64,000 bases of DNA from Candidatus Thorarchaeota archaeon. Its GTDB lineage: Archaea; Asgardarchaeota; Thorarchaeia; Thorarchaeales; Thorarchaeaceae. Position 1 is the first letter of the stretch. Each line of letters begins with the position of its first letter. A program made the translations under genes and the position numbers. A model generated the notes under the pieces. The model had not been told where the DNA came from, made no database searches, and was given only the letters and a program-made list of their open reading frames with translations. The stretch is from NCBI GenBank assembly GCA_048884965.1, contig JBHLQH010000009.1, forward strand, positions 1-64,000, in the 5' to 3' direction. Shown here in pieces: positions 1 to 16,124 of the stretch.

Positions 1-18
1 ATCTCGGCCGGTCCACCA
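1..18 (+). repeat. tRNA-Ala 3' end (copy 1; could be the end of the intact tRNA gene, truncated by window)
   Basis: ATCTCGGCCGGTCCACCA = T-stem 3' strand, acceptor 3' strand CCGGTCC (U70 of the Ala G3:U70 pair), A73 and CCA. Confidence 0.85.
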
Positions 19-636
19 CTACTTCTCAAACACCAGACAGTAAAAGTGATTGTACCCAAATAGCTCAAAGCATGATTCATCCTCTTCCTGCCAACAAATG
101 ATGATCTCCTTCTCAAATCTAAGGACTTCTGAGAGCGATCGAGCCATATCCCATGCCAAGAGAGTCAGAGGTTGCTCGTCATTGGCTCCTAGATTGTATA
201 CTCCCACGATTGCTTTTCCTCCTGGTTTTAGGAGTACACCAATCATCCTGAATATCCTTTGAAGTTCCTCGAGATAGTCTTGGTAGGTTCCATCCTCCTT
301 GAATGCTGAAAGAGGATTTTTTGTTTCATCGCTATACATGAAGGTTGGAGAGGTGTACACGAAATCCAACTGAGGAATTTGATACTCGTTTAGTCTTCGT
401 GAGTCCCCATGAATGATATTATCCTTCATTTTAAGATGTGAATGCGCAACGTTGTATCGCTCCTCGTCAATCTCAATGCCAAACGGTATCCGTCCTAGTT
501 TCTCTGCAATAAAGAGAGTCGACCCGAAACCTGCGAATGGGTCAAAGACAGTATCACCTGGTTTTGTGAAGTTTTCAATGAAGTGCTCAACAAATGCTAA
601 CTCACTTTTCTTGGACAATAGAATATAACTCTTCAA
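19..636 (-). CDS. DNA N4-C/N6-A methyltransferase (N6_N4_Mtase-like)
   Basis: TKPGDTVFDPFAGFGST (SAM-binding motif I), GIEID, DFVYTSPTF (SPPY-like motif IV). Start moved to TTG at 636 because the track start at 717 lies inside the tRNA repeat. Confidence 0.8.
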   Translation of the reverse strand: MKSYILLSKKSELAFVEHFIENFTKPGDTVFDPFAGFGSTLFIAEKLGRIPFGIEIDEERYNVAHSHLKMKDNIIHGDSRRLNEYQIPQLDFVYTSPTFMYSDETKNPLSAFKEDGTYQDYLEELQRIFRMIGVLLKPGGKAIVGVYNLGANDEQPLTLLAWDMARSLSEVLRFEKEIIICWQEEDESCFELFGYNHFYCLVFEK

Positions 637-691
637 ACAATCCCAGCCTCTACACCTTGAAGCCGCACTACGAAATAAATTATCTGTATGC

Positions 692-735
692 TGGCAGGGA
701 GGAGGTCCCGAGTTCACATCTCGGCCGGTCCATCA
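692..735 (+). repeat. tRNA-Ala(GGC) 3' half, intron-less form (copy 2)
   Basis: TGGCAgGGAGGAGGTCCCGAGTTCACATCTCGGCCGGTCCAtCA. Confidence 0.9.
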
Positions 736-817
736 TCTTTTCCAATGTTGGTTTGAGATGGCTTGCGCCAAAGTCGCTTCTTTTAACAAACAATCGACCC
801 GAGAACAGCGATGTATA

Positions 818-1837
818 ATGACCCTGTCTCAGAGGACTCCACTCGTTCTGGGTTTGATAGCAATTCTAACTATAGGTCTAACTTTATCATTCGTATTTCT
901 CTCAATCCCTCCGACTGACAATAATCCTACGCATACAGAAATACGGATTGACCTGATTGGAGCGATCGATACCGGCGGCGCAGGTTTACGAGTTCATGTA
1001 GAAGGAAATCTTGCTTTTGTTATTGATACTGGAACAGAGGGTACCTATGGTCTGATCATTGTCAACATTGCCGATCCCATGCAACCTACAATTGTAGGCA
1101 CTTACCATGCTGGTGGACTCCCCTTTGCAATAGACTCTGAAGGTGATATCGTGTATATCGCAGACCAAATTGAAGGTCTTATAATTCTCAATATATCTGA
1201 TGTGGCAAATCCAACTCCCATACCCGGATTTACCGGAAGTAGATCCTATGACATAGAATTAATTGATGATTTGCTGTATCTCGCTGATGATGAGGAAGGT
1301 CTGGTTATATTGAATGCCAGTAATCCGAGTGCACCAGAATTCATTTCGAACTATGGTCAAAGATGCATCCATTTGGCAATTGAGGGTGATATTGCATATT
1401 CGACAATTCAGGGACTATCACTAATCGACATTAGTGACTCAATGCACCCATCACTCCTTTCCAACAGAGAGGACGGTACAGGATTTTGGGATCCATCTGT
1501 ATCTAACGGTATTCTCTACCTTGCAAATCACAATGGAGGTGTGGGCGAGCTCCAAGTGTATGATGTATCAGATCCTTACAATATTGAGAAGATATCAGAA
1601 TTCGACTCAGAAGGAAATTTCCAGTCTTTCGATGTACAAGGCTCCGTATTATACGCAGTAGATTTCGAAATTGGACTGTATCTTCTAGATATACGCAATC
1701 CTTCCTCTCCCTCTGAAATCGCGCTTTTCGATGGTGGTGGCAGACCTTGGGATGTAAAGGTATGTGGAGAGTATATCTATCTAGTTGGCTCCGAAGGTTT
1801 GCAAATCCTTCAGATAACAGAAGTAGCTATCTTTTGA
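818..1837 (+). CDS. Membrane-anchored LVIVD-repeat (beta-propeller) protein
   Basis: N-terminal hydrophobic helix, then repeated 'YxAD..GLxIxNISDxxNP' units. Likely start MTLSQR at 818 (track start 758). Confidence 0.85.
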   Translation: MTLSQRTPLVLGLIAILTIGLTLSFVFLSIPPTDNNPTHTEIRIDLIGAIDTGGAGLRVHVEGNLAFVIDTGTEGTYGLIIVNIADPMQPTIVGTYHAGGLPFAIDSEGDIVYIADQIEGLIILNISDVANPTPIPGFTGSRSYDIELIDDLLYLADDEEGLVILNASNPSAPEFISNYGQRCIHLAIEGDIAYSTIQGLSLIDISDSMHPSLLSNREDGTGFWDPSVSNGILYLANHNGGVGELQVYDVSDPYNIEKISEFDSEGNFQSFDVQGSVLYAVDFEIGLYLLDIRNPSSPSEIALFDGGGRPWDVKVCGEYIYLVGSEGLQILQITEVAIF

Positions 1838-1944
1838 AAGAGATGATTCTGGGGTTGACATCTTCTTCACAGGGATTATTGGTGTCATAGCAACCGCTTT
1901 TGAATCTTGAAATTGCATATTCTAGATTATTCCGATCATTGAAT

Positions 1945-1986
1945 GCATGGAGGAGGTCCCGAGTTCACATCTCGGCCGGTCCACCA
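1945..1986 (+). repeat. tRNA-Ala(GGC) 3' half, intron-less form (copy 3)
   Basis: GCATGGAGGAGGTCCCGAGTTCACATCTCGGCCGGTCCACCA followed by TTTCTTCCTC. Confidence 0.95.
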
Positions 1987-2068
1987 TTTCTTCCTCTGTT
2001 TCTCCTCGACTTATACTGTTATTAGGAAGAAGATACTGTAGTTCTGATGAAAGTTCGGGGGATAGGAT

Positions 2069-2365
2069 GTGTCCGAAGGTAAATCATTAACAATAGATGT
2101 TCCGAGTCCAAGTCAGAAACGGCAGGTCCAATTGGATTTGCTTGATGTTGGCTTTAGAGTTTCTTGGAGTACTGGCGGTAGACCCTTCCAGCAAGCATTT
2201 CGTGTTGATTTACAGATGGGTTGGATTACGCGAATTCCGACCAAAGATGCTGAAACGAAAGAGAAGCGGCGGGATGATGTTGGGATTCCGATTTGGCTTT
2301 ATAGATACATTTTGGGACATGATTTAGAGGATCTCCAGAAGGCAATACGGAAGCAAGGTAAATAG
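2069..2365 (+). CDS. Hypothetical protein (98 aa)
   Basis: ORF fills the interval between repeat copies 3 and 4; GGGGGA upstream of the GTG; no recognisable motif. Confidence 0.5.
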   Translation: MSEGKSLTIDVPSPSQKRQVQLDLLDVGFRVSWSTGGRPFQQAFRVDLQMGWITRIPTKDAETKEKRRDDVGIPIWLYRYILGHDLEDLQKAIRKQGK

Positions 2366-2372
2366 ATCGTTT

Positions 2373-2451
2373 CTTCCTTGGCACTTGCGACACACTTCGG
2401 GTGCATCCAAAGTGGAGGAGGTCTTGAGTTCGAGTTTCAGCCGGTCCATCA
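2373..2451 (+). repeat. tRNA-Ala(GGC) anticodon arm plus 3' half WITH a 37/38 intron (copy 4)
   Basis: CTTCC-TTGGCA-[CTTGCGACACACTTCGGGTGCATCCAAAG]-T-GGAGG-AGGTC...CCGGTCCATCA. TTGG (32-35) can pair with intron CCAA between two 3-nt bulges, giving a BHB motif. Confidence 0.85.
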
Positions 2452-2589
2452 TTCATTCTTTTCTTCATAAATTCGAATTGATTATGATTAAAGATACCTT
2501 TCTGAAAACAGAGAATAACAGCTGAAAAAGTTAGTCTATTATATATTTCAAGTCAATGTTATCCTAATCATCGTAAGGAGTGGTAATTA

Positions 2590-3759
2590 GTGGTCGAAGG
2601 AATTCGAAAGCAAATTTTGGCATTAATGATTGTTCTTGGAATTTTCCTTGGGATCATTGTTGTCGGAACATCTTCATACATCATGTTTAATGAAATCGAG
2701 GGAAATCCAATTTCAAATACTATATTCAAAGACCTTTCTAAATTTGGGACGATGCCAATAATTGACATGTCTGGTATGGCTTCAAACAATGAATCCTATT
2801 TCATCGATTCAAACCTTTGGAATATGCCTCTCATTTCATCATCACAAGCAAGAGAAGCAGCATATGAATTTCTGCAAAGCATTTTTAATGAGAATCAGCT
2901 TGAATCGGTTTCTGTTCAATGGCAACATTTGGTTGGAGATAATCCAACTTGGGTCATTGCCATTGAAGGATACTATATTGTCACCCTGCTATTCGTCAGT
3001 GCCATTACAGGAGAATTGATTGGATGGAATCTCTCTTCCCTTTCCCTTGACCCACCCGAATCTTATTATGAAAATGGCTCCTATATCTCAGCAAGTGTTG
3101 CTGAGGAATGTGTTTTTGATTTCTTGGCACTGCATAACTACTCAATCCCAGATGGTGCGCGATATTTGGGAGTGAATGAATATCCCTCTGATTTGAATAA
3201 TTACTACGCAATATTCCGCCATTATGAAGGTCAGTTTCCGGTTGGGCTTTATCCCCATGATTCCTCTATCAATCCAGATTACTCAAGTGAAGGTATTATT
3301 CTTCGAATAGACAAGAGGACAGGATTTATCACTCAATTTGGATATCGCTGGACGAAGATTGACCCTCCACCACCAATAGGAATCCTTCCTGAATGGGAAG
3401 CGGGGCGGATAGCTGGAGCGTTCTACGAACCTGAAAACATATCCCTCATAGATGCACAGATTCTCATTGCTCCAGTTCTAGGATTAGAGTCATCTGATGG
3501 ATCACCACAAATTCACCTAATATGGCATCTCGCAATCAATAGAGATTCGCGGTTGGTCTATGTGTATATTGATGCATATACGGGAGAAGTACTAGACGAG
3601 CAAAGAACCAATGGTAATGCACCTGCAATAATCAATACAAATGATTCACCTACTCTTTTTCCTGTAGTTATTACAAGTCTCTCGATTGGGGTAACAGTAG
3701 CTGTATCGTCAAGTTATATGATTCGTAAGAGATATCTGTTTGATTCTGGCGAAGTATAA
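2590..3759 (+). CDS. Membrane-anchored extracellular protein with YcdB/PepSY-like domains
   Basis: N- and C-terminal TM helices; repeated 'VSAITGE', 'IDKRTG', 'YIDAYTGEVL' motifs. Confidence 0.65.
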   Translation: MVEGIRKQILALMIVLGIFLGIIVVGTSSYIMFNEIEGNPISNTIFKDLSKFGTMPIIDMSGMASNNESYFIDSNLWNMPLISSSQAREAAYEFLQSIFNENQLESVSVQWQHLVGDNPTWVIAIEGYYIVTLLFVSAITGELIGWNLSSLSLDPPESYYENGSYISASVAEECVFDFLALHNYSIPDGARYLGVNEYPSDLNNYYAIFRHYEGQFPVGLYPHDSSINPDYSSEGIILRIDKRTGFITQFGYRWTKIDPPPPIGILPEWEAGRIAGAFYEPENISLIDAQILIAPVLGLESSDGSPQIHLIWHLAINRDSRLVYVYIDAYTGEVLDEQRTNGNAPAIINTNDSPTLFPVVITSLSIGVTVAVSSSYMIRKRYLFDSGEV

Positions 3760-4249
3760 TCCCAGATACTATGAATATTTAGTGGAGCTAGGACAAAGCA
3801 TGGCAGATCAAGAGGATTCAAAGAACGACATTGAGCTAGATTTAGCAGGCCGGACTCTACGAGTATACTGGTACATGCTACAAAATAAGGAACCTCTGGG
3901 TCGTCTCGAAATCCAAAGAGGAACAAAACTATCAAGCGCCAGTCTTGCAGAGTATCATCTGAGAAAACTCATTGGAATGGGTCTTGTAGAGAAGAATATC
4001 TATGGTGAATATGTAATTAGTAGGACTGTACAAGTTGGAGTAATGCGTTTCTATATGATTTTTAGGAGTAATATGATACCTCGTTTTCTTCTGTATATCT
4101 CATTCTATATATCTATACTAATTGCTCTTCTGGTATTCTTCAACAATATACCCCAATCAATTATGTTTCTTATTGTTACGATTCTTGCCTTTGGAATCAT
4201 TTCATCTCTCATCGAAAGTGTAATTTTATGGAAAACATCTCCTACCTAA
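3740..4249 (+). CDS. Winged-HTH transcriptional regulator with two C-terminal TM helices
   Basis: GRTLRVYWYML...LSSASLAEYHLRKLIGMGLVEK wHTH, then two hydrophobic segments; start may be ATG 3800. Confidence 0.75.
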   Translation: MILAKYNPRYYEYLVELGQSMADQEDSKNDIELDLAGRTLRVYWYMLQNKEPLGRLEIQRGTKLSSASLAEYHLRKLIGMGLVEKNIYGEYVISRTVQVGVMRFYMIFRSNMIPRFLLYISFYISILIALLVFFNNIPQSIMFLIVTILAFGIISSLIESVILWKTSPT

Positions 4250-4363
4250 TTTACTTCTATCATCCTAAAATTGATTGAATCTAATTTGCAGATCCAATGA
4301 ATGAAAAAATCTTATTAGATAGTTCATCTGTTACAAAGCCACCTCGTGGTGGAGGGATGAACT

Positions 4364-6151
4364 GTGATTAGAAATAGAGCTAGGAAACGAAACTATGCGC
4401 AGAATGCCATTCTGATAGTATTATTGTTTGTCACTTCTACAATGATGTATGTAGGATTTGCATCATCTTATAGTACCTTATTGCATCATGATGAAGGCAA
4501 CGATGAATTGAACGAATATGCTGCGTCTATTGCCAAAGTTGTTATGGACTCCACAGAAAATCTCAGATTGGAGGATGTTTATGATACGACTGATCCGCAG
4601 ACTAGTAGCACTGTAAGATGTATGTCTTGGACTCTAACAGGTGCGGATTTGATAGAACTTCGCATTGATTTGGAAACTGGTTTACTCGTTAGCTATATCG
4701 ATACAACAAATCATCCAGACACTCTATACTATATCTCTGAAATATCAGATCAGAATGCATTAGAAAGAGCATACACTTTCTTTGAAACTCTCTCACAATT
4801 GTGTCTGTTCTCTTGGCCGCAAAACTGTGAATATGCTGGTGTACTGAGTCTTGAGTCTTACTGGACTTTTGTATGGCATCATATTATTGATGGAATTAAG
4901 GTAGTTGATGATTCACTTAGAATCAGAATAGACCCTTACACAGGCAATGTGCGGTACCTTCAGATACAATGGAGCAACTACGATTCAATTTCATCAATGT
5001 ATGTAAATCCAGATGTGACTTCTAATGTCGTGTCTGAAATCATCAGTACAAACGATGTCATAATTGAACAATCAGGTCCATTCTTATTCAAGAATGAGGA
5101 CACGCGACAATACGATTTGAGTTGGAATTTCGATGTTAAAGTTGACTCACAGCTGATTGCTTCAACTTATGTGAGTACAAGCACTGGTTCATTTCTGTCT
5201 ATTGACACAACAAATAGCTACTACGGTGAATTCGTATTAGCACAGGGTCGTTCTGGTCTTACAGGTACTGGTTCTTTGGACCCAGCTCATACCGCAGCTC
5301 TAGATTGTGCTGGATATCGTCTTGAGAGCGATAACTATCACAAGGATACTTGGGATAACACAGTTATGCTCTCAGAGATGGTGAGCTATTTAGATAATGC
5401 AAATATCATCATTTTTGAAGGACATGGGTATGGAGGTTCTGGCGTTGGGTCATGGATGACCATTTATGGATATGATTTCGGGGGGGAAGACGTACCAGAA
5501 GATATGTCCCAGGCTGAGATTTTCTATACCGCTTCATGCGAAGGAGGATGGACAACTCAATATCCGCAGTATGAAAACAAATTCATTGCAAATATGGCTC
5601 TTAATGCTGGTGTAAAGGCTTACCATGGTTTTTTGGGTTCGCCAAAAACCGAGCCAGAAAGTGACTACTGTAAATATTTTTGGGCTGCAGCAGCAAATGG
5701 TAAGACTTTTGCAACTTGTCAGGAGTATGCCGGAAGCTATGTTAGCAACGTAACACTTGGTAATGTACCCTCAGCATTATATGGCGCCAGAAGTAACTCA
5801 CTTTCAAAGGTAGATGTAAGCTACAACCAAATCCTAGGATATGTTCATGTAAATGACCATCTGTCTTTTGACAATGAGCCTTGCTGGCAAGTTGATTCCG
5901 ATCAACTCAGATTTTATTCCTATGAACTTGCATATTACAGCATTTATGTTGATCCCGAACGCAGCGACTTTGATGTTGCCTTTAAGGTCTACAACAAATA
6001 CTATCAACTGATCGCAACTGTAAATTCTCATGGATCTGGTGGTACTGAATCATATTGTTTCTCAGGCGGCTCAGGATTCTATTATATCAAAATCTATATC
6101 GCATCTTCATACGGCGGAATATATGACCTAGATGTGTTCGTTTCTTCCTAA
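4364..6151 (+). CDS. Secreted protein: PepSY-like N-terminus, clan CD (caspase/gingipain-fold) domain, C-terminal PPC-like domain
   Basis: Signal/TM at N-terminus; IDLETG and IDPYTG motifs; IIIFEGHG...FYTASC His/Cys dyad pattern; DFDVAFKVY...GGTE...GFYYIKI PPC-like end. Confidence 0.6.
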   Translation: MIRNRARKRNYAQNAILIVLLFVTSTMMYVGFASSYSTLLHHDEGNDELNEYAASIAKVVMDSTENLRLEDVYDTTDPQTSSTVRCMSWTLTGADLIELRIDLETGLLVSYIDTTNHPDTLYYISEISDQNALERAYTFFETLSQLCLFSWPQNCEYAGVLSLESYWTFVWHHIIDGIKVVDDSLRIRIDPYTGNVRYLQIQWSNYDSISSMYVNPDVTSNVVSEIISTNDVIIEQSGPFLFKNEDTRQYDLSWNFDVKVDSQLIASTYVSTSTGSFLSIDTTNSYYGEFVLAQGRSGLTGTGSLDPAHTAALDCAGYRLESDNYHKDTWDNTVMLSEMVSYLDNANIIIFEGHGYGGSGVGSWMTIYGYDFGGEDVPEDMSQAEIFYTASCEGGWTTQYPQYENKFIANMALNAGVKAYHGFLGSPKTEPESDYCKYFWAAAANGKTFATCQEYAGSYVSNVTLGNVPSALYGARSNSLSKVDVSYNQILGYVHVNDHLSFDNEPCWQVDSDQLRFYSYELAYYSIYVDPERSDFDVAFKVYNKYYQLIATVNSHGSGGTESYCFSGGSGFYYIKIYIASSYGGIYDLDVFVSS

Positions 6152-6161
6152 ACATGCAGAA

Positions 6162-6187
6162 GGATGGTGAATTTTCGTTCACCATCC
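6162..6187 (+). terminator. Hairpin downstream of 4364..6151
   Basis: GGATGGTGAA-TTTTCG-TTCACCATCC, perfect 10-bp stem 10 nt after the stop. Confidence 0.6.
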
Positions 6188-6239
6188 CTCCCAATCCAAT
6201 TCAGCACTCCATTTAGATACCTAATAGGAAACTAGTGAA

Positions 6240-7007
6240 ATGAAATCAACCATGATTCCCAAAGGCTTACAAGAACTTGGCATTCTCTCGCTTCTCAATG
6301 AACTTGAATATAATAGCAAATCTGTGTATCTTACAGGTTCTTGGGCACGAGGGACTAATACTTCTCTGAGCGACATTGACCTTGATATCTTGGCATGCGA
6401 AGATATACCAAAGGAAATCATTCTAGGAACAATCACACCCTATCAATCCAATAAAATTGTTATTGATGCGAAGATTTTCACACCTATCGAGTTTACTCAG
6501 CTCCAGAAGGGGCCCTCACATTTCTTTTTTTGGACTCGCTTCCAAGATGGACTTCATATTAGTGGAGATTCTCTCTCTCTGAAACATGATTATGAACAAA
6601 CTCGCCGCTTCATCGAGGTTAGCATGGATAGAATGAACGAAGCAATTTCACTTGTTCATTCTGGTAGATATCTGGCAACGGTGCTATTCCTAATGTATGA
6701 GTCTTTATGTGGGTCTTACTTTTTGGAATCCTACCTCTTAAATGGTAAGAGGATTCAATACATAAAAGAGGAGTATTTGAGAAATCACTGTGGGAATCTT
6801 TTCTCTCTTTGTCGACAAAACTACTATACGCATGTAAGAGCACAGTTCCAAGATTCTCTCGATTGGCCAATAAGAATCCGTTTTCGCAGTGATCTGAAAA
6901 TGAAGAAGGATGCTTTTCAAACACTTAAGGATGTAATATATCAGGTCGACAATCATGTCATGAATGTCTATAATAGTGCCCTCAGGAAGATTGATAGTAT
7001 TGTATAG
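6240..7007 (+). CDS. Pol-beta-type nucleotidyltransferase (MNT) domain protein with helical, possibly HEPN-like, C-terminus
   Basis: VYLTGSWARG...SDIDL signature. Confidence 0.7.
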   Translation: MKSTMIPKGLQELGILSLLNELEYNSKSVYLTGSWARGTNTSLSDIDLDILACEDIPKEIILGTITPYQSNKIVIDAKIFTPIEFTQLQKGPSHFFFWTRFQDGLHISGDSLSLKHDYEQTRRFIEVSMDRMNEAISLVHSGRYLATVLFLMYESLCGSYFLESYLLNGKRIQYIKEEYLRNHCGNLFSLCRQNYYTHVRAQFQDSLDWPIRIRFRSDLKMKKDAFQTLKDVIYQVDNHVMNVYNSALRKIDSIV

Positions 7008-7022
7008 TTTCATATGTTAGAA

Positions 7023-7087
7023 TCGACGCACTTCGCGTGCGACCAAAGTGGAGGAGGTCCCGAGTTCACATCTCGGCCGGTCCACCA
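7023..7087 (+). repeat. tRNA-Ala 3' half with 3' part of the intron (copy 5)
   Basis: TCGACGCACTTCGCGTGCGACCAAAG|TGGAGGAGGTCCCGAGTTCACATCTCGGCCGGTCCACCA; intron hairpin CGCAC/GTGCG is homologous to copy 4. Confidence 0.92.
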
Positions 7088-7105
7088 CTTCTTCATAAAG
7101 ATTCT

Positions 7106-8074
7106 TTACTTTGGAATCAATTGTTTCTCTTTTAGTTTCAGATAAGCTGCCCGACAGGACTCCACATCATGAGAAAAGAGATACTGGGCAAATTCAAGAT
7201 AGTCGAAGCCCTCGACTTCTTCGATGAATCCCGCCTTTTGCATCCCATATTGAGAAAGCCCCCACATCGCTGTGAAAAGCATCAACATGAATTTCATTCC
7301 TGAGAGCCTTATCCACGAGTCATTACTGACTTCAGTGAAGTAGCATTGCAGCATGAATTCCTCTAATTCAGGTGGAATGGGACCAATACTATCGTGAGTA
7401 TATACGAGTGTCGCCAGGTCGTAGTAGATGTCTCCCATTCCTGCGAACTCCCAATCAATTATCGTGATTTTATGCTGTTCATCTGAGTATAGATAGTTCA
7501 CGGCAACGAGGTCATTATGGCAGAACCGTAGCCAATCCGATTGATCCTTTCTTTGATCCTCTTCTATCTCTCTCATCGTATCCAATAGAGCTTCGAAATC
7601 ATAAGGTAAAGGGATATCATATTCCTTCGCGGTTCGAGTATAGGCTTCGACACGATTGAAGGGTGAGAACCTACCTTCAATAGCTGGGAGAGAATGCAAT
7701 TGCTTGACTGTCTGTGTCAATAGGCGTATGTTCTCCGGCCTTCGATACTCATCATGCGTCCAATGGCGTCCATCTATCCAACGAGTTACAAGATGCCCTT
7801 CTGGTTTACTGAAATAGATTACCTCTGGTCCAATCCCTACACTGGAAGCTACTTGTAATGCCTCATATTCGAAATCACGATTGATACCAAGTTTCTCAGC
7901 ATTCTCTCTACTGATTCGCAAAACATATTGATTCTTACCTGCTGTTATCTGATAATTCGCATTAGTAAGACCATCGATTTTTTCCACAATTAGTTCTTTG
8001 ACACCCTTCAATGCTGGTATCCTATCAGTAATTGATTGTATCTCGGGATTCATTCTTCCTTTCAGATATCCCAA
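7106..8074 (-). CDS. Choline/ethanolamine kinase-like phosphotransferase (APH superfamily)
   Basis: GLTNANY, YVLRI, FCHNDL..N (Brenner motif), IIDWEFAGMGD...DLA; start may be ATG 8053. Confidence 0.9.
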   Translation of the reverse strand: MGYLKGRMNPEIQSITDRIPALKGVKELIVEKIDGLTNANYQITAGKNQYVLRISRENAEKLGINRDFEYEALQVASSVGIGPEVIYFSKPEGHLVTRWIDGRHWTHDEYRRPENIRLLTQTVKQLHSLPAIEGRFSPFNRVEAYTRTAKEYDIPLPYDFEALLDTMREIEEDQRKDQSDWLRFCHNDLVAVNYLYSDEQHKITIIDWEFAGMGDIYYDLATLVYTHDSIGPIPPELEEFMLQCYFTEVSNDSWIRLSGMKFMLMLFTAMWGLSQYGMQKAGFIEEVEGFDYLEFAQYLFSHDVESCRAAYLKLKEKQLIPK

Positions 8075-8117
8075 AATCGGTGGTTTTAAAGCTGTGTTTC
8101 AACGTCAAATCACATTC

Positions 8118-8159
8118 GTATGGAGGAGGTCCCTAGTTCACATCTCAGCCGGTCCACCA
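8118..8159 (+). repeat. tRNA-Ala 3' half, intron-less form (copy 6)
   Basis: GtATGGAGGAGGTCCCtAGTTCACATCTCaGCCGGTCCACCA then TTATTCTTCTC. Confidence 0.9.
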
Positions 8160-8259
8160 TTATTCTTCTCATCCGTAGGTCTAACTACAGCATGGTCTAG
8201 GGATCAGACTTCGAAATTCGACTGGAAGATTTAACTACCACGTTTCTAAGAACTAATCG

Positions 8260-9153
8260 ATGATTGAAATCAAGCAAATTGGAGAGCCTAAGGTTCTTGA
8301 CGATAATTCCAATGAAGCAAACTCATACACCTTTCATGCCAGTATGTCCACAATGAGAGCGCGATTCAGCAACTCCTATGAGGGTTACCATGGGAATCCT
8401 GTCTGGGACTTGACAGTCTATGCAGATAGGCTGATTGAGCGGAACATTGAGCCTCTTTGGGAAGGTCTTGAGGAACATGCACAGTGCTTTCAACTTCCGA
8501 TGAACTATATTCCATTTGGACATGATGGAGGCACTTTCTGCTATAATCTTCTTGAAAGTGGGACCCACATCTTTGATTTCGTTGAAGATACACGGACTAC
8601 GTCGGAGGTCCGAGGAATCTGGTCTATCCTATGCGCACCAGAGTCTCCTATGATATTGATAGGAGGTACCAGTAAAGCCACACGTCAAAAGGGCGTCTAC
8701 ATCATTGACTACTCAGGAAAAGTAGTTCGCAGAATCGAGGTCCTAGATGATACGCCTGATGCCTACCTTTCCTGGCTGATGTACAAACCTACAATTCTAT
8801 CTATCAACAAGAAATCCAGTGCACATAAGACATGGTTATCTGAGATAGATATTGAAACTGATGAGATTCTTCAGAAAAGAGCGATTGATCCCCAAGATAT
8901 CCTTCCTTATGATGATCTCTCATATTCACAGTATCAAGAAAAAAGTGGCGCTCTTAGGACTGAAACTGGCTATGCACTTGATGGATTACTCAGGAATAAA
9001 TGGTATGATTACAGGTATAATTATGGTCGCAAGACACTCCGGTTGAAAATATACCACCCACCTATTGAGTACCTTCTATCAGCGGACCGTCCTGAAACCA
9101 GCAACGTTCAAGGAATCCTATACGAATATACCTTCAAGATAGAGTTCCTCTAA
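8260..9153 (+). CDS. Hypothetical protein (297 aa)
   Basis: Long ORF filling the interval between copies 6 and 7; no motif recognised. Confidence 0.6.
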   Translation: MIEIKQIGEPKVLDDNSNEANSYTFHASMSTMRARFSNSYEGYHGNPVWDLTVYADRLIERNIEPLWEGLEEHAQCFQLPMNYIPFGHDGGTFCYNLLESGTHIFDFVEDTRTTSEVRGIWSILCAPESPMILIGGTSKATRQKGVYIIDYSGKVVRRIEVLDDTPDAYLSWLMYKPTILSINKKSSAHKTWLSEIDIETDEILQKRAIDPQDILPYDDLSYSQYQEKSGALRTETGYALDGLLRNKWYDYRYNYGRKTLRLKIYHPPIEYLLSADRPETSNVQGILYEYTFKIEFL

Positions 9154-9231
9154 TGCAGGAACACGACCTTGGATTGTGATCGTCCCACGGAAACAATCAG
9201 ATATATCTATAGCAATAATCCTGAGTCTGTG

Positions 9232-9257
9232 GGAGGTCCCGAGTTCACATCTCGGCC
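9232..9257 (+). repeat. Truncated tRNA-Ala fragment (variable loop and T-arm only; copy 7)
   Basis: GGAGGTCCCGAGTTCACATCTCGGCC, exact 26-nt match to the other copies. Confidence 0.85.
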
Positions 9258-9389
9258 AAATCTCTCTTGCACATCAATGGCGAAGATGTGGTGGTATATA
9301 TTCACTGGAATCTATCTAATAATTCTCTCAATCTTCATGCTCGTTGGAATTACATATACGTGATTAAATGATGTGTCTATGAGCATGAA

Positions 9390-11435
9390 TCAATCGGTAA
9401 CAGCTTTCTGCTTGATCTGCCTGTAGTAAGCAAATCCAAGGTAGATTCCTATTGCTGTCCCGATACATATAGCCACGTCTAAAGATGGACCTAGACTAGT
9501 AGTAGAAACCACTACAAGAACAGAGTCACTGGCTTCATTCCAGCAAGTATCACGAATCACAATAGTAAAGATGTAGATTCCTGGTATGAGTCCGGTTAGA
9601 TTTATCGTAATCCTACTTTCATTCCAGATACCGGATTGCACAACAAAACCGTTGCAGAGGATCGTGTAATTTAGAGGATGAGCATCATTAGCATTCCATT
9701 CTATAACTTGGTCTAACTCGTTCAGACTGCAGTAAATGTTCTCAGGAGTATCTATTGTTGGTAGAACTGTATCTGCTTTCATCGGGAAATGATCGATACC
9801 ATCACCATGTCCATCAGTTACGTAATATCCCACACCAGAATAATCTCCCCAGTAGTTACCTAGAGAACCGTTGTCCCACCAATTCATGCCCTCAATATTT
9901 ACAGCAGACGAAAAGAGATCATCTACAGCATTTGATCTGATATTCCAAGCTATCGTGTTGTTGTAAACAAGATTGTAGTCACTATCATGATCGAGCTTGA
10001 TTCCCCAATTGTGATTGTTTGTGATGAGATTGCTGAAGATTGTGTTATTGCTGGATTCGCTAAATGTGATACCGTAGCCATAAGTTTCGTTTCCAATCAC
10101 CTTGTTATTATAGATTAAGATAGAATTAGAGGAAAGACAATACAAACCAACATTATTTCCCATAAATTCAGAATTCATAAATATCAAATACTCAGAATAC
10201 GTGATACGTACGGCCATGTAATTCCATCTAAAGGATGCGTCCTGAATCAAACAATCGACTGAATGTTCAATGCATAAAGCTTCCTCTGCATCTGTGATAT
10301 GGATATCTGTAAGAGTTCCTCTGGAAGTACCTACAATATACAGAGGATATCTACCTCCTGAAATTGAGATGTTCTCTAGTTCTATATCATCCGCCCATAG
10401 TAAGTATATACCTCTCCATGATATATTGTTCATGGTGAGATTCCTGATACTTAGTTTCGAAACTTCTTGACATTTCACTCCATTAGTGCACATCTCGAAG
10501 TATGTATCATGTATTTGGATATCCTCTGACTGATAGATGTCGATTGCAGAGTCAGTTCTGATAAAAACACCACTTGAGAGAACAATCTCGGAACAGTTGA
10601 ACAACAGAATGTACCCATAGTCATTCATATTCACGGCTTTCGACTTTTGTTCAATGAACACTCCAAGTGGTTTCCCATTGACTGTAGTATTAGTGAGTGT
10701 ATGATTGAAATCCTCTTTCCTAGATCCTACTATTTCGATGCTGTCATTGACAAAAGCATTGTTACTTATCACTGCATTTTCAGAGGTAATCATATAGCAA
10801 CCAAATTCATTATCACGAATTACACAGCATTGTATTGTAATATTATCACATGTGTTGATGAAAATTCCGTTGCGATTTTCAAATAATGTAGCATTTTCGA
10901 TTCTTGTTTCATCAGAAGAATGGAGAAATATTCCATATGAGTTGTTGTGAATTTTGCAATTCATGATGGTAGTCTTGTCTTGCAACACATCTATTGCTCG
11001 TAATGAATGTCCATACAATTCTGTATTGTTAATAACCGAATTTGGAGAATTGCGGAGATATACCCCAGTGGAACTGGATATCAATAGGCATCCATTGATT
11101 ACAAAATGCAAACTCACAGATTCGATGGATATACAACACGATTCATCCTCAATTCGATAATTACTGATGTAGAAAGGATTGCTAGCCGATCCATTTCCTA
11201 ACCACCCTTCATTACCAGCTTGTTCAACGATATCTGTGTCTGATGTAATTACAATTGCGTCATGCAGGATTTGACTCGAAATAAAGGATTCAGTTACAAT
11301 AGAGTTATCGATGTTATCATGAGTTGATTGAAACGGATCAAATTCAACCAAAGGTGTAATAGAAAATAGGACTATTAGCAATATAATTACTGTAGGGATC
11401 CAACAATTCCCTCCTCCATTGATATTCAAATCCAC
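9390..11435 (-). CDS. NosD/CASH right-handed beta-helix surface protein with C-terminal Ig-like domain and TM anchor
   Basis: GNGSASNPFYI, many 'N..GI.L..S.N..I.NN' coils, GNYWGDYSG...D.FP, C-terminal TM plus basic tail. Confidence 0.85.
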   Translation of the reverse strand: MDLNINGGGNCWIPTVIILLIVLFSITPLVEFDPFQSTHDNIDNSIVTESFISSQILHDAIVITSDTDIVEQAGNEGWLGNGSASNPFYISNYRIEDESCCISIESVSLHFVINGCLLISSSTGVYLRNSPNSVINNTELYGHSLRAIDVLQDKTTIMNCKIHNNSYGIFLHSSDETRIENATLFENRNGIFINTCDNITIQCCVIRDNEFGCYMITSENAVISNNAFVNDSIEIVGSRKEDFNHTLTNTTVNGKPLGVFIEQKSKAVNMNDYGYILLFNCSEIVLSSGVFIRTDSAIDIYQSEDIQIHDTYFEMCTNGVKCQEVSKLSIRNLTMNNISWRGIYLLWADDIELENISISGGRYPLYIVGTSRGTLTDIHITDAEEALCIEHSVDCLIQDASFRWNYMAVRITYSEYLIFMNSEFMGNNVGLYCLSSNSILIYNNKVIGNETYGYGITFSESSNNTIFSNLITNNHNWGIKLDHDSDYNLVYNNTIAWNIRSNAVDDLFSSAVNIEGMNWWDNGSLGNYWGDYSGVGYYVTDGHGDGIDHFPMKADTVLPTIDTPENIYCSLNELDQVIEWNANDAHPLNYTILCNGFVVQSGIWNESRITINLTGLIPGIYIFTIVIRDTCWNEASDSVLVVVSTTSLGPSLDVAICIGTAIGIYLGFAYYRQIKQKAVTD

Positions 11436-11514
11436 TCTCTCCGAAATTCGTTTACTTTGAAAGTTCTTAAATTTATACTACAGTAGTTGAACATGGACAC
11501 ATGCTAATTTCATT

Positions 11515-11554
11515 TCCTTGGCATGGAGGAAGTCCCGAGTTCAAATCTCAGCCG
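11515..11554 (+). repeat. tRNA-Ala(GGC) anticodon arm and T-arm, intron-less form, decayed 3' end (copy 8)
   Basis: TTCC-TTGGCAT-GGAGG-AaGTC-CCGAG-TTCAAAT-CTCaG-CCG; the 7-nt anticodon loop with GGC identifies Ala. Confidence 0.88.
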
Positions 11555-11567
11555 ATTCAGATCCATC

Positions 11568-12095
11568 TCATGTTTCTATCCTATTGCCTATCGAATAATA
11601 ATTGAAATCTCCGCCGATCGCCCATATCATAGGTTGGACTTTTCTCAAGTCCATTTTTCCATCCAGTAGCACATCTTGATCAGCATATGATGCCACCACC
11701 TCTCCAATTATACCATCATTAGGGTCATAGTCTAATATCTCTGTGACTCTGCACTCCATATTCAATGGGCAATCCGATATCATTGGAGCCGTATCTAATT
11801 CACCATAGAAGACCTCGAAGAGCGAAGACTTGTCGTAGTCCCTACCAGATTTGCTTCCACAGATATTCACCTTCTCCAACATGTCCTTAGAGGGGATATT
11901 CACACTGAAGGTCATATTCTCATGGATGCCAATCCTTGTGTACCGTTTCTTGTACAGGCTAAAGAATATGTGTTTTCCAAAGTTGAATGGAGAAATATAG
12001 CCAATCACTAGAAAATTCGGTCGGTTATCGACCATAGAGCCTACCAAGGCCACTGGAAGAGGATTCAACAGATTGCCTCTTACTACTTCCTTCAA
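11568..12095 (-). CDS. Flavin reductase family protein (flavoredoxin-like)
   Basis: P.PVALVGS, FSVNIP, CGSKSGR..DK, APMI.DCP.NMEC.V. Confidence 0.9.
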   Translation of the reverse strand: MKEVVRGNLLNPLPVALVGSMVDNRPNFLVIGYISPFNFGKHIFFSLYKKRYTRIGIHENMTFSVNIPSKDMLEKVNICGSKSGRDYDKSSLFEVFYGELDTAPMISDCPLNMECRVTEILDYDPNDGIIGEVVASYADQDVLLDGKMDLRKVQPMIWAIGGDFNYYSIGNRIET

Positions 12096-12124
12096 AGTCA
12101 GTCCTCCATCACAATCCTATCATC

Positions 12125-12727
12125 CTATCCCCTCAAAGGAATGCCATATGCCTCCGAAAACGCAATTTGATGCAATGCATTTGTTGAACGAGGCGTTGGC
12201 TCACCATTCGGTATCCCTAATGTGACTAATGCAACGATATCTACATTGTCAGGTATCCGAAGTGCTGCTTTTACAACGCCAACATCATCCGTGTTTCTAG
12301 AATCAAGCATTGCGACCCAGCAAGATCCATATCCTAGGGCAGTTGCAGCTAGGACAAGATGCTCTGTAGCGATCATAGTGTCTTGTACATGCCACATTGA
12401 CGGATTATTTGGACAACAAGAAGATTCTCTATTTGCTAATGCCATGACTACTGCCTTTGCTTTGGCTATGAATCCCTGCCTTCCTGCAACAAGAGAGAGT
12501 AGCTTGATAGTTTCTGGTTCCTTTACAATCAGATACTGCCAAGGTTGAGTGTTGTTTGTGGACGGCGCAAGACGAGCCGCTTCAATCATCTTCATTATGT
12601 CTGCATCGGGAATATCGATATTCTTGTATTCCCTTATACTCCTTCGATTTCTCACAACCTGAAAGAAATCGGATTCATTACTATCTGCAATCTCAGAGGA
12701 TTTCTGCATCATATCACCATCAAACAT
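12125..12727 (-). CDS. Nitroreductase family protein
   Basis: RRSIREY, EAARLAPS.NN.QPW, LAATALGYGSCW. Confidence 0.92.
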   Translation of the reverse strand: MFDGDMMQKSSEIADSNESDFFQVVRNRRSIREYKNIDIPDADIMKMIEAARLAPSTNNTQPWQYLIVKEPETIKLLSLVAGRQGFIAKAKAVVMALANRESSCCPNNPSMWHVQDTMIATEHLVLAATALGYGSCWVAMLDSRNTDDVGVVKAALRIPDNVDIVALVTLGIPNGEPTPRSTNALHQIAFSEAYGIPLRG

Positions 12728-12802
12728 CCATATCTATTATCGGATGCCCAATATATCTGACGTCCAATATATAAACATGATAATCTAAGCAAGAAATCAC
12801 TT

Positions 12803-12850
12803 CATGGAGAAGTATGGGAGTCCAAATTTCAAGTCCGGATCAGGCGACCA
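12803..12850 (+). repeat. Decayed tRNA-Ala fragment fused to the 3' tip of a different tRNA (C1:G72/A73, Tyr-like)
   Basis: CATGGAGaAG.....GAGTcCAAATtTC resembles the Ala repeat. 12828-12850 TTCAAGT-CCGGA-TCAGGCG-A-CCA has exact tRNA 7+5+7+1+3 spacing. Confidence 0.5.
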
Positions 12851-12920
12851 CTACTTTGTTCTTCCACTAATCGTAGGCTCTCTAATTCATAACCAAATCT
12901 ACATTGAGCGAATTTCATTC

Positions 12921-13448
12921 TCACCCTTCGCGATAGACTCTCATAACCTCGAGGACTCTGTTACCCTCTTTTGTGGAGCATTTGTTGCATGTTGGTCGTT
13001 CAGCTGAAATAAGATGGTATCCAACGTGTGCGGTTCTATTTGATGTTTGATTCGTGGATACTACTAGCTCGCATGAAGTAAGGTACAATTCTTCCTCATG
13101 CGTTCTCTCCCAAATTCTGGCAACATGTATTTGCTTTCCAGTACTTGTGACATATAGCTTTCTTGGAGGGAATTTTCTACGAACGAATATACCTCCAACA
13201 ATTACTGAGATTGCAAGTAAAAGCAAGTAAGGAAGGATGTGGAGATCATATCGATAGGGAGGGGTCCATGTGTAGTACTGAATATTCCAATAGCCGGGTG
13301 ACAGCAAGAAGACAAACAGTAGGATTATCCCCAGATACACCAAGGATGTACCGAATGCACGATTCCATTCATCATCCATTTGCTTTACCCTCAACCTATC
13401 ATACCCGCGAAAGCATTTCATGCTTTCTACGCGTCTGCGTGCGCTCAA
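12921..13448 (-). CDS. Hypothetical membrane protein (2 TM)
   Basis: Two hydrophobic segments; HV..., C, CNKC residues in the C-terminal part; start uncertain. Confidence 0.55.
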   Translation of the reverse strand: MSARRRVESMKCFRGYDRLRVKQMDDEWNRAFGTSLVYLGIILLFVFLLSPGYWNIQYYTWTPPYRYDLHILPYLLLLAISVIVGGIFVRRKFPPRKLYVTSTGKQIHVARIWERTHEEELYLTSCELVVSTNQTSNRTAHVGYHLISAERPTCNKCSTKEGNRVLEVMRVYREG

Positions 13449-13619
13449 AAGCTGGGGTATGCTATACGCATTAGGAAAAGGAGATCGACTAAGTCTTCCA
13501 TTCTGAGTTCAGAGATATCATTTGAAATACTGGGAGTACGCCAATGCAGGTTTGGATGGAATAAAGGGGGTTTCTATCAAAGAAATCTCAAGTGTCCACC
13601 TTAGTTCATCATCTGACGA

Positions 13620-14282
13620 CTAGGGATAGCACAATTCCCAATCTGAATGATATGAATGGACTAGACTCATCAACTCAAGATATGCATCCTCTGAGAAGAA
13701 TGGTCTAGGGCAAGTTGCTTCTCCATCGTAGACTGCGAAGTGTATATGTGCCCCGCCTCCTATAGCAAGAAAATGACCGATCGTGTCCCCCTTGGCTACC
13801 CAATCACCTACCTCGATTTCAAGCATTTCTATTTGTCGGTCTGCATCTGTTGAGTTCGTAGTCCATGGTTCAAAGACATACCCGATCTGAATTGACTCAT
13901 TGAATCTGATCGAAACATGAATCATGTATATATTCTCAGTTGGACCTGTATCAGTCCAATGAATCTCCTCCACAAGTCCCGGTGCAGCGGCTATCACTTC
14001 AGAGTCATTCACAAATGCAAAATCGAGCCCGTTATGAGTAGCCCCCCAAGGACAGTTTGTACTCTCGCTATATCCGCCATTCCAATTTAGGATGTCAGAT
14101 TGGTTCGTGTAGATGATGCCCATGTAGTTCAGGTTAGCAGAATCATAACGCCCTTCGTTGTCAAATGTATTCTCTCCATTTGGCGGATCTGGATTAATCG
14201 GAACGCCTCCAAATTGGATATACAAAACAACCCCAATGCAAATTATGACCAGTAATATGATACAGCTAGTTCTTCTTCGCAT
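13620..14282 (-). CDS. Membrane-anchored M23-family peptidase-like protein
   Basis: N-terminal TM; HNGLD, VIAAAPGLV, VGDWVAKGDTIG, AHIHF. Confidence 0.8.
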   Translation of the reverse strand: MRRRTSCIILLVIICIGVVLYIQFGGVPINPDPPNGENTFDNEGRYDSANLNYMGIIYTNQSDILNWNGGYSESTNCPWGATHNGLDFAFVNDSEVIAAAPGLVEEIHWTDTGPTENIYMIHVSIRFNESIQIGYVFEPWTTNSTDADRQIEMLEIEVGDWVAKGDTIGHFLAIGGGAHIHFAVYDGEATCPRPFFSEDAYLELMSLVHSYHSDWELCYP

Positions 14283-14329
14283 AATTCTCTGCTATAGAGA
14301 AATGAATTCAAAAGGTTGTTCATTATCCC

Positions 14330-14434
14330 TCATGATACCAAACCGGTAAACAGAGGACAGTAGATGTGGTCGTAGCCATACATATCCGGGCCATCCCCTT
14401 GTCCCTTGTCGAATCCATGCCAACAAATGGGAAT
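14330..14434 (-). pseudogene. C-terminal relic of a DNA methyltransferase paralogous to 19..636
   Basis: Minus-strand frame IPICWHGFDKGQGDGPDMYGYDHIYCPLF versus the MTase end IIICWQEEDESCFELFGYNHFYCLVF; in-frame stop two codons upstream (14438-14440). Confidence 0.7.
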
Positions 14435-14503
14435 CCATCATCTCACCATCCTGTTGTAGATGGACTCTCCTAGTAATTGAATGGCACGAAAACATGATGG
14501 ACG

Positions 14504-14543
14504 GAAAAGAAAAGACACAGTCAGTGAGTTCCAGACTGTGTCT
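14504..14543 (-). terminator. Hairpin plus T-tract after 14564..15979
   Basis: AGACACAGTC...GACTGTGTCT stem; TTTCTTTTC follows on the minus strand. Confidence 0.65.
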
Positions 14544-14563
14544 ATTATCGGTTGATAGGGTCT

Positions 14564-15979
14564 CTATCCAAAGAATGTGTAGGAGCACTGATTGACGATC
14601 TTCGGATTCTGCACATATGTGCCGCTTGTTGGCATCAGAGCCTTTGCAGCATAGAATGCATCGACTGCATTGTACCCATTCTTCACATAATTCCAGAAGT
14701 AGTTGGCAAATACCTCCTCTCCTGGGAGCGCACCAACTGCCCACGAGTTATGTTCCTCATCGGATGAAGACATCGCGAGATAGCCGCCACCTGCCATGTC
14801 ATCTGCAAAGTCACCAGAGTGACAGGAGGAGATGAGCATGCCGACCTTTGTGCTATCTAGCTGATCACAATAGGACCTGAAAGTGTTCGAATAGACAATG
14901 CTTGATGAGGGTGCGAAGGCTGTGTATGAATGGTAACCATCGTTGTTCCCGTGTCCAAAGAGATAGAAGAAGACGATATCATCAGCGTCCTCATACGCAG
15001 CTACCTGCGAGAAGTCGCTGTAGAAGTTACTTGTATCCCTGAACTCGAAGAACTTTGTGTATCCTTCATTCTGTAGATATCCCTTGTACTCATTGATTAC
15101 GGTCTGTGTGCCAGCATCGCTTGCCCAGAAGAAGACTGCAATCTTCTCAGCCTCTCCGCCGCCACCACCGCCATAGGTCAATGTGACCGTGAGGCTGTAC
15201 GAACCGGAGCCGCTATATGAACGGACCATGATATACCATGTGCCTGCGCCTGGAGTGTTGAAGGTGACCTCCTCTCCACCACTGGTATAACCCCGCCAGT
15301 CATAGGTTGAGGTTGTAGGCTCTGCACCACGCCTTCCATAGAGGTCAAAGTCAGCTGAGCCACAGGTGAGTACAGAGTACATGCTTTCGCAGTCTGCATC
15401 CACTTCGATTGTCCACATCTCTGTTGCTCCAGTTGCTGAAAGGGAGCTGGTCACAGTGACACCGCTCTCAAGCTCGTTGTCGCCGCCACCTCCACCGCCG
15501 CCACCGATATACTCGATTTGATCGATTGCAAAGCCCCACTTCGTAATCGAATAATCTGTATCAAGACGAACCTTGATGGATTCTCCATAGCTCCAAGATG
15601 ACCACCCTCCAGATGAGTAGAGACCGGTGAGACTATGGAGTCTGGTATTTGCATAGTCGTAGACATAGACATAGTCATATCTGGACTCCACATCGATTTT
15701 TGTAAAGTGGACTCTGATCTGTGTCGCTCCAGCCTCGGTTATAGTCCAGGTATAGTCGAAATTGTTTGCATAGGGATGAGATGATTCCAACACATACGTT
15801 TCGACGTCTAGCGGATTGAGTGCAAATGACTGCCTTTCCACGCCTCGCACATTACTATCCTGCTGTAATTTCATTTGCTCCATTGGGATTACAAATGGTT
15901 TTGCATTGGCAAACATGGGTATTGCTGCAAAAACAAATACAAACAGAAAGAACAACGATAGAACTTTCGTTTTCTTCAT
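14564..15979 (-). CDS. Secreted CUB, PPC and caspase-fold (clan CD) peptidase-like protein
   Basis: Signal peptide MKKTKVL; ESSHPY.NN..TWTI...IRVHF..DYVYVY...TD.S...GF (CUB); DFDLY.R.GA.PT...YD (PPC); FFYLFGHG...ISSCHSG dyad; poly-Gly linkers. Confidence 0.75.
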   Translation of the reverse strand: MKKTKVLSLFFLFVFVFAAIPMFANAKPFVIPMEQMKLQQDSNVRGVERQSFALNPLDVETYVLESSHPYANNFDYTWTITEAGATQIRVHFTKIDVESRYDYVYVYDYANTRLHSLTGLYSSGGWSSWSYGESIKVRLDTDYSITKWGFAIDQIEYIGGGGGGGGDNELESGVTVTSSLSATGATEMWTIEVDADCESMYSVLTCGSADFDLYGRRGAEPTTSTYDWRGYTSGGEEVTFNTPGAGTWYIMVRSYSGSGSYSLTVTLTYGGGGGGEAEKIAVFFWASDAGTQTVINEYKGYLQNEGYTKFFEFRDTSNFYSDFSQVAAYEDADDIVFFYLFGHGNNDGYHSYTAFAPSSSIVYSNTFRSYCDQLDSTKVGMLISSCHSGDFADDMAGGGYLAMSSSDEEHNSWAVGALPGEEVFANYFWNYVKNGYNAVDAFYAAKALMPTSGTYVQNPKIVNQCSYTFFG

Positions 15980-16124
15980 ATATTTACACCACGCGAATGG
16001 TTTCGAACCCTCGAAACCATAATGCAGAATTTCCAAGCTTGTTTATATATCTTACTTGTTAAAAATGCATTATGTAACTGGATAGACTGAAACATGCACG
16101 CTTAGTAACTAGAACAAGTGCATC

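Follow-up and report, generated by a model that had tools for sequence, protein, structure and literature searches.

The left end of a 64,000-nucleotide window from a Thorarchaeota metagenome-assembled genome carries an array of about ten cassettes, mostly single genes on either strand, separated by partial copies of a tRNA-Ala(GGC) gene. This window covers the opening 64 kb of contig C9 (JBHLQH010000009.1) of the 4.09-Mb assembly (G000; 95.7% complete, 7.2% contamination). The account towards which we lean is that the tRNA gene is an insertion hotspot and that the locus grows away from it, with cassettes also being lost, copied and exchanged and with position giving coarse age only. The original prediction, made from the letters of the window, was that the newest cassettes enter at the left, next to the tRNA, and push older ones rightwards, making the array a chronological record as in CRISPR arrays and integrons. 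The locus shows that position within a stack of this kind reflects history only coarsely, and it is an integrase-free cassette array of an Asgard archaeon that can be tied to a candidate enzyme.

Partial tRNA Copies and Their Identity Gradient

The last exon of tRNA-Ala(GGC), 38 nt long, occurs in the array as nine partial copies, counting a trace at 13583, all on the plus strand. Copies were located by blastn of the full tRNA against the genome and by an nhmmer scan with a profile of the copies; outside C9 neither search found any in the 4.09-Mb assembly, the remaining matches being real tRNA genes. Seven copies were significant by profile (698-735, 1948-1986, 2364/2375-2451, 7024-7087, 8121-8159, 9229-9257, and 11524-11559). 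From left to right, the ungapped matches to the exon numbered 36, 37, 31, 37, 35, 28, 31, 22, and 16; these counts replaced a gapped alignment score, which was dropped as a measure of identity (random windows scored 27.7/38). After alignment to the host tRNA, identity fell with position, as had been predicted, with a Spearman rho of -0.62 for the seven profile-significant copies (p = 0.14), -0.75 for eight copies (p = 0.03), and -0.82 for nine copies including the 13583 trace (p = 0.006).

The short copies consist of the intron-less last exon, and several retain a remnant of the spliced anticodon loop in front, most clearly at 11514. The first two (698..735 and 1948..1986) are nearly perfect, and two long copies extend into the intron. 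One of these (7024..7087) includes part of the host-type intron, whereas the other (2364..2451; exon 2, intron and exon 3) reaches back to the D-stem and has an intron allele nearer to those of other genera (3-4 differences) than to that of the host (6), together with unique transitions in the T-arm. The idea that this copy (2364/2375-2451) is simply a piece of foreign tRNA was therefore rejected, since it is both foreign in type and decayed. The copy at 8121..8159 has two T-stem changes, that at 9229..9257 is truncated and has lost its acceptor end, and that at 11514..11559 retains A58 but has a scrambled 3' end, its junction to the next gene being conserved in G003 and G045. Five copies (698, 1948, 7024, 8121, and 9229) carry a T-loop A58C change, which is found neither in the tRNA nor in the copies of relatives that were compared. 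All G000 copies but one carry the host-type T-stem.

The two rightmost copies are weaker. That at 12803..12850 is heavily decayed and contains indels; its 22/38 matches exceed the background (P = 0.0009), and a well-kept copy occupies the orthologous position in the same-genus genome G003. Neither the profile nor the ungapped count (16/38, P = 0.44) gave significance to the trace at 13583..13600. The two-part motif that it contains (AAATCTC, 4-5 nt, GTCCACC) nevertheless occurs just four times in the genome, namely in three tRNA-Ala genes and at 13583, and the trace abuts the M23 peptidase gene exactly as a good copy does in G020. All nine copies thus lie where they had been placed beforehand, on the evidence of blastn, nhmmer, ungapped counts and, for 13583, this motif and context. 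The earlier description of the near-perfect copies as ending in CCA was right overall, with the correction that the copy at 698 ends in TCA. The host tRNA, in contrast, is not within the window as had been assumed: the gene lies on contig C91 (4806-4942), and only its tip is found at window positions 1-18.

Variable and Conserved Zones of the Array

Cassette sharing was determined by whole-genome protein searches in six same-genus genomes, which are metagenome assemblies of 60-93% completeness, so that absences carry less weight. A 16-kb DNA search over the family, in which three candidates were scored per genome, was set aside for presence or absence. The methyltransferase, the 98-aa ORF (80% identical to an ORF in another genus), the 595-aa protein, and the APH-like phosphotransferase had no counterpart in the six congeners, and the LVIVD protein (51%), the PepSY-like protein (51%), and o8260 (54%) were each found in one. 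The nitroreductase was present in three (77, 77, and 71%), as was the M23 peptidase (75% in G001; 53% in G004, with two copies, and in G002). In other words, cassettes left of about 11.5 kb occur in 0-1/6 congeners at no more than 54% identity, whereas those beyond it occur in 3/6 at up to 71-77%, like the flanking core gene. As anticipated, the right-hand cassettes are the more widely shared.

Gene order from o8260 rightwards to the last copy is common to G000 and G003, and the first cassette behind the tRNA was different in every congener in which it could be seen. The array is therefore variable where it adjoins the tRNA and conserved from about 11.5 kb onwards, between-genome variability being greatest at the tRNA-proximal end. 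Several cassettes that are tightly bounded by copies recur in other genomes with conserved copy junctions (the methyltransferase, M23, o2069, PepSY, o8260, and the 12921 family). These results indicate that the gradient in this array is real and reflects a coarse age polarity in which the far end is old and vertically inherited, and new DNA probably enters beside the tRNA. On the reading that we prefer, foreign cassettes, mostly single genes, would have been inserted repeatedly at the start of the last exon of the tRNA. Each insertion would bring a new tRNA end and leave the older one downstream, so that the locus would grow away from the tRNA and its far end would on average be the oldest.

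The same gradient could arise in an old, essentially static array if recombination or gene conversion homogenised the copies near the tRNA while the far ones drifted, in which case identity would measure distance and not age. The derived A58C in five copies does resemble homogenisation among copies, the near-uniform host-type T-stems of G000 differ from the mixed arrays of relatives, and the codon usage of every cassette gene lies within the genome range. However, the tRNA retains A58 and so was not the donor of such conversion. The proximal cassettes are, moreover, missing from congeners or present there at low identity, one is 80% identical to a gene of another genus, and the first cassette after the tRNA changes from one same-genus genome to the next. 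We consider a static array quite improbable.

Position as a Record of Insertion

If the array were a chronological record, right-hand cassettes were expected to lie closer to the codon usage of the genome. This was not observed: synonymous codon usage of 17 genes was within the genome range (z -1.8 to +1.25) and showed no trend with position (rho -0.25). GC content was low across 1-14 kb, likewise with no trend within the array.

The copies themselves also argue against a simple clock. Array copies in relatives bear different T-stems, each with its base pairing kept intact by compensatory pairs, implying that they derive from different working tRNA alleles and that departures from the resident tRNA do not amount to decay. 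A large share of what separates copies from the tRNA is accordingly imported allelic variation. Ahead of the flavin reductase gene, G000 and G003 each have a copy at the same position but with different, internally compensated T-stems, which means that copies get overwritten. Cassette families were also found at other ranks. The methyltransferase is first in G000 and stands between the nitroreductase and M23 in G056, the LVIVD gene lies immediately left of the nitroreductase in G005, and two members of the 12921 family are found in each of G002 and G005. The assembly contains no Cas1, and order is not conserved among relatives.

A strict record, in which all cassettes entered at the tRNA, none moved, and copy decay runs as a clock as for CRISPR spacers, is suggested by the trend in the G000 array, which is monotonic but for one copy. 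In addition to the overwritten copies and rank changes described above, the most decayed G000 copy has a well-kept orthologue in G003, and the arrays of G024, G002, and G003 show no such trend; we regard a strict record as very improbable. Contrary to the original claim, the array does not form a chronological record of the CRISPR kind, and position gives coarse age only. On the preferred reading, this would follow from cassettes being lost, copied, and exchanged through recombination between copies, and from copies of different allelic origin being overwritten.

Three observations sit awkwardly with directional growth itself. First, no identity gradient was found in the arrays of relatives (rho 0.26 in G024, 0.04 in G002, and a negative value in G003); on contig C140 of G024, 19 copies span 35 kb, and there are near-perfect ones at a great distance from the start and decayed ones close to it. 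Second, five copies have A58C and the tRNA does not, which is difficult to reconcile with each copy having once served as the working end. Nearly all tRNAs conserve A58, so these can hardly have been five successive working ends; the A58C copies therefore share ancestry, through insertion into, or conversion among, copies. Third, a 3.3-kb stretch past the last shared copy in G000 is missing from G003 and G005, and represents either a distal insertion or two deletions.

Search for the Insertion Enzyme

We searched the cassettes, C91, and the whole assembly for tyrosine and serine recombinases and found no match to PF00589, PF16795, or PF00239. PF00589 was detected in only 29 of 86 genomes of the family, suggesting that a XerA-type recombinase is either not universal in this archaeal family or too divergent to detect. 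In relatives checked for both, tyrosine recombinases were beside neither tRNAs nor tRNA-Ala arrays, and the upstream flank of the tRNA contained no conserved recombinase. A metagenome scan yielded 120 loci with the site, mostly single copies and of unchecked origin, none of which matched four tyrosine recombinases of relatives by tblastn; scans of viral contigs for the exon found none carrying the site.

These results bear on the possibility that classical tyrosine-integrase elements entered the 3' part of the tRNA and that their integrases acted in trans or were later deleted, leaving cargo and attR-type fragments. Such accretion would resemble Islander tandems, the cis-mobilisable elements left by integrative conjugative elements, or tycheposon remnants. 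An identity block from the anticodon loop to CCA is the commonest attachment layout of integrases (Islander statistics, PMC4383910), partial tRNA copies in the same orientation are a hallmark of this kind of integration, and mobile elements are often lost from metagenome-assembled genomes. Against this stand the negative searches above and the cassettes themselves, which are neat single genes of 0.4-2.3 kb and not decayed 10-40-kb elements. An integrase origin is therefore unlikely, although it deserves more weight than a static array or a strict record.

Clustering of all array ORFs revealed a different candidate, a family with a LAGLIDADG fold whose genes are convergent to the tRNA and stop, where measured, about 0-15 nt behind the CCA of tRNA-Ala(GGC). 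In 10 of 10 loci (G001, G012, G024, G094, G009, G046, G050, and three metagenome contigs), the gene adjoins a full-length tRNA-Ala(GGC) and never a partial copy; members of the family were noted at several loci (L022:3006-4136 in G001:C166, L018:12573-15284 in G024:C140, L013:99-1496, L050:432-1970, L083:1871-3280, L157, L158, L159, and L163). It is the only mobility-type gene in the tRNA-Ala loci of relatives. The family had no sequence match in Pfam or the PDB. However, an AF2 model (pLDDT 71.8, pTM 0.75) matched I-DmoI, I-Tsp061I, and PI-SceI in Foldseek with probability 1.0 (target-normalised TM 0.51-0.57 for I-DmoI), and there are two LAGLIDADG-like motifs in which both acidic residues are invariant across the family. 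Members are present in 53 of the 86 family genomes in up to eight copies; distant ones abut tRNA-Asn-like ends and are intact in G068, G075, and G003.

Since intact endonuclease-like genes are solely tRNA-proximal, they lend independent support to entry at the tRNA. Of the claim that new cassettes enter at the left and displace older ones to the right, the coarse polarity thus survives, through congener sharing and this tRNA-adjacent gene, and the clean order is lost to A58C, overwritten copies, and changes of rank. Judged from the predicted fold and the location of its genes, the LAGLIDADG-fold family appears to be the best candidate for the enzyme, and its association with the tRNA is not proof of array building.

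We tentatively suggest, at somewhat less than an even chance, that the locus is an integrase-free directional stack. A LAGLIDADG protein acting as a homing endonuclease would cut tRNA-Ala(GGC), and the double-strand break would be repaired from a donor array with the tRNA and any downstream exon copy as homology arms, as in the mobile endonuclease ORFs (mORFs) of fungal mitochondria, cargo hitch-hiking singly or severally. The tRNA would serve as leader, copies that lack the cleavage site (perhaps those with A58C) would be immune, and the endonuclease gene would since have been lost from the G000 array. Such stacks might constitute a general Thorarchaeota gene-capture system at the ends of tRNA and protein genes. 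If true, this model would explain the collection of accessory genes at fixed sites, the abundance of tRNA fragments, and possibly the variability of tRNA introns. The introns themselves were considered as an immunity device and rejected, because endonuclease-adjacent tRNAs have none, one, or both of them.

Several points count against the endonuclease model. In the G000 array there is neither an endonuclease gene nor a remnant of one; in G012 and G094 the endonuclease lies by the tRNA but there is no array, and the arrays of G002, G003, and G005 have no endonuclease. Abutment alone is not special, since the preceding CCA end is also abutted by other cassette genes of the minus strand. Finally, the protein of G024 has a long N-terminal fusion and is coupled with a HerA/TraG-like ATPase, leaving room for a toxin-type interpretation.

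Two related loci were noted in this context. In G024 (L018:10014-15284; C140:30014-35284), the gene for the 852-aa HerA/TraG-like P-loop ATPase ends exactly at the start of that for the 904-aa LAGLIDADG-tipped protein, suggesting a coupled pair. Outside the window, at G000:C94:476-879, the 3' end of a tRNA-Asn that contains an intron is followed immediately by a 68-codon remnant of the LAGLIDADG-like family.

Host tRNA Gene and Contig Junction

The host gene (C91:4806-4942, 137 nt) is a tRNA-Ala(GGC) with the G3:U70 pair and measures 76-77 nt once its two introns are removed, one of 29 nt at 37/38 and one of about 31 nt in the D-loop. ARAGORN detected it only in intron mode, and Rfam at E 0.1 on C91 overlooked it as well. 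A second, intron-less tRNA-Ala(GGC) gene is located on contig C4 of G000 (160883-160957). The first 77 nt of the window are identical to the last 77 nt of C91, which is the sole overlap partner, and the plus-strand tip in the window (1..18) comprises the last 18 nt of the gene from T-loop to CCA. The assembly break falls exactly in the T-loop in spite of this unique overlap, which may reflect strain variation at the proximal junction.

Introns of the orthologous tRNA-Ala(GGC) genes vary by genome (L018:15270-15460, L050:1965-2150, L083:3275-3460, L013, L022, and L095), there being none (G024), the D-loop intron only, the 37/38 intron only, or both. A conserved TATA-like box (CTCCACAATTCTTTTAACC) lies upstream of the gene in most of the loci shown. 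At L022:4752-4843 (G001:C166), 1.8 kb downstream of the intact gene, the 5' part of the tRNA is found again in inverted orientation together with its upstream flank, which suggests that the hotspot has undergone an inversion or a duplication.

Gene Content of the Cassettes

The first cassette (19..717, minus strand) encodes a DNA methyltransferase without a close homologue in the six same-genus genomes, and its stop codon abuts the CCA end. It is followed by an LVIVD beta-propeller protein (758..1837, plus strand) and the 98-aa ORF o2069 (2069..2365, plus strand), whose homologue in another genus is in G009. The next cassette (2590..7007, plus strand) comprises five genes, including a PepSY-like protein, an HTH protein, the 595-aa protein, and a nucleotidyltransferase, and has the lowest GC content; its PepSY gene forms a single-gene cassette in G002. 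An APH/choline-kinase-like phosphotransferase (7106..8074, minus strand), o8260 (8260..9153, plus strand; a 297-aa protein of unknown kind with its homologue in the G003 array), and a NosD/beta-helix protein (9390..11435, minus strand) complete the part to the left of the 11514 copy.

To the right of that copy, the genes up to and including the right flank are on the minus strand. The flavin reductase and nitroreductase (11568..12727) are found in three of the six congeners at 70-77% and are widespread in the family, and a small membrane-protein cassette (12921..13448) belongs to a family that recurs in the G002 and G005 arrays. The following stretch (13620..16036) encodes the M23 peptidase, a 150-aa ORF, and a PPC/CUB protein. 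It also contains a weak methyltransferase relic at about 14349-14435, where 29 codons match the C-terminal end of the methyltransferase in the first cassette at 38% identity (E 0.001 in a small search); it is an intact homologue of that methyltransferase that G056 has between the nitroreductase and M23. The conserved right flank is an aldehyde:ferredoxin oxidoreductase gene (16125..17858), 78% identical to that of G003 and 67% to that of G005.

The most recurrent single-gene cassette in the arrays of relatives is not in this window. Its product, about 140 aa long, is predicted to have four membrane helices and lacks a Pfam match (L020:5032-5460, L023:226-648, L156:3597-4100, L017:996-1475, L050:5273-5869, and L145:9038-9613). 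This family was considered as a mobility enzyme and rejected, as it is a small four-helix membrane protein.

Comparison with Known Systems

Integrons share with this locus small, mostly single-gene cassettes, a recurring repeat like a recombination site, a cassette pool spread across genomes, and the expectation of entry at one end. In contrast, we found no IntI or other tyrosine recombinase and no attC hairpins, the genes point in both directions, and a tRNA exon serves as the repeat. For Islander, a tandem counts only when every one of its islands brings an integrase, and tandems of this type are rarely longer than two, those of at least three making up 4 of 3919 islands (PMC4383910). The intact tRNA at one end, the 3' fragments in the same orientation at the ends of the units, and an identity block running to the 3' end of the tRNA, with short copies extending from the anticodon-loop remnant to CCA, are all as in Islander tandems; the 9-10 units here, however, have no integrase.

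In fungal mitochondria, a LAGLIDADG mORF arrives together with a foreign 3' end of its host gene and leaves the native end downstream, as in atp6 of Allomyces and atp6, atp9, cox2, and nad3 of Glomus (PMC3630166). Nine displaced tRNA ends lie downstream here, and in relatives a LAGLIDADG-fold gene stands directly behind the working end; this endonuclease ORF is absent from the array of the window and present at the 10 related loci. As to whether the working end is foreign and the relic native, the 2364-2451 copy has an other-genus intron allele and the copies of relatives have several compensated T-stem alleles, whereas most G000 copies are of host type apart from A58C. Unlike this locus, mORFs leave one relic and not a stack, carry no cargo cassettes, and target protein genes.

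The idea of a directional island is not new. For the tRNA-flanked islands of Prochlorococcus, which are built by tycheposons, a model of directional growth has been published (Hackl et al., 10.1101/2020.12.28.424599). There, too, partial tRNA copies separate the units, variability is highest next to the tRNA, tRNA-Ala(GGC) is among the targets, and incoming elements insert at the tRNA and displace their predecessors inward. Tycheposons differ in carrying tyrosine or serine recombinases and replication modules, none of which were seen here. The units described here are mostly single cargo genes, copy density in relatives reaches 19 in 35 kb, and the tRNA bears introns and belongs to an Asgard archaeon. 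By their defining tests, the locus is neither an Islander tandem nor an integron; it works like the tycheposon-island model and may do so by the mechanism of mORFs.

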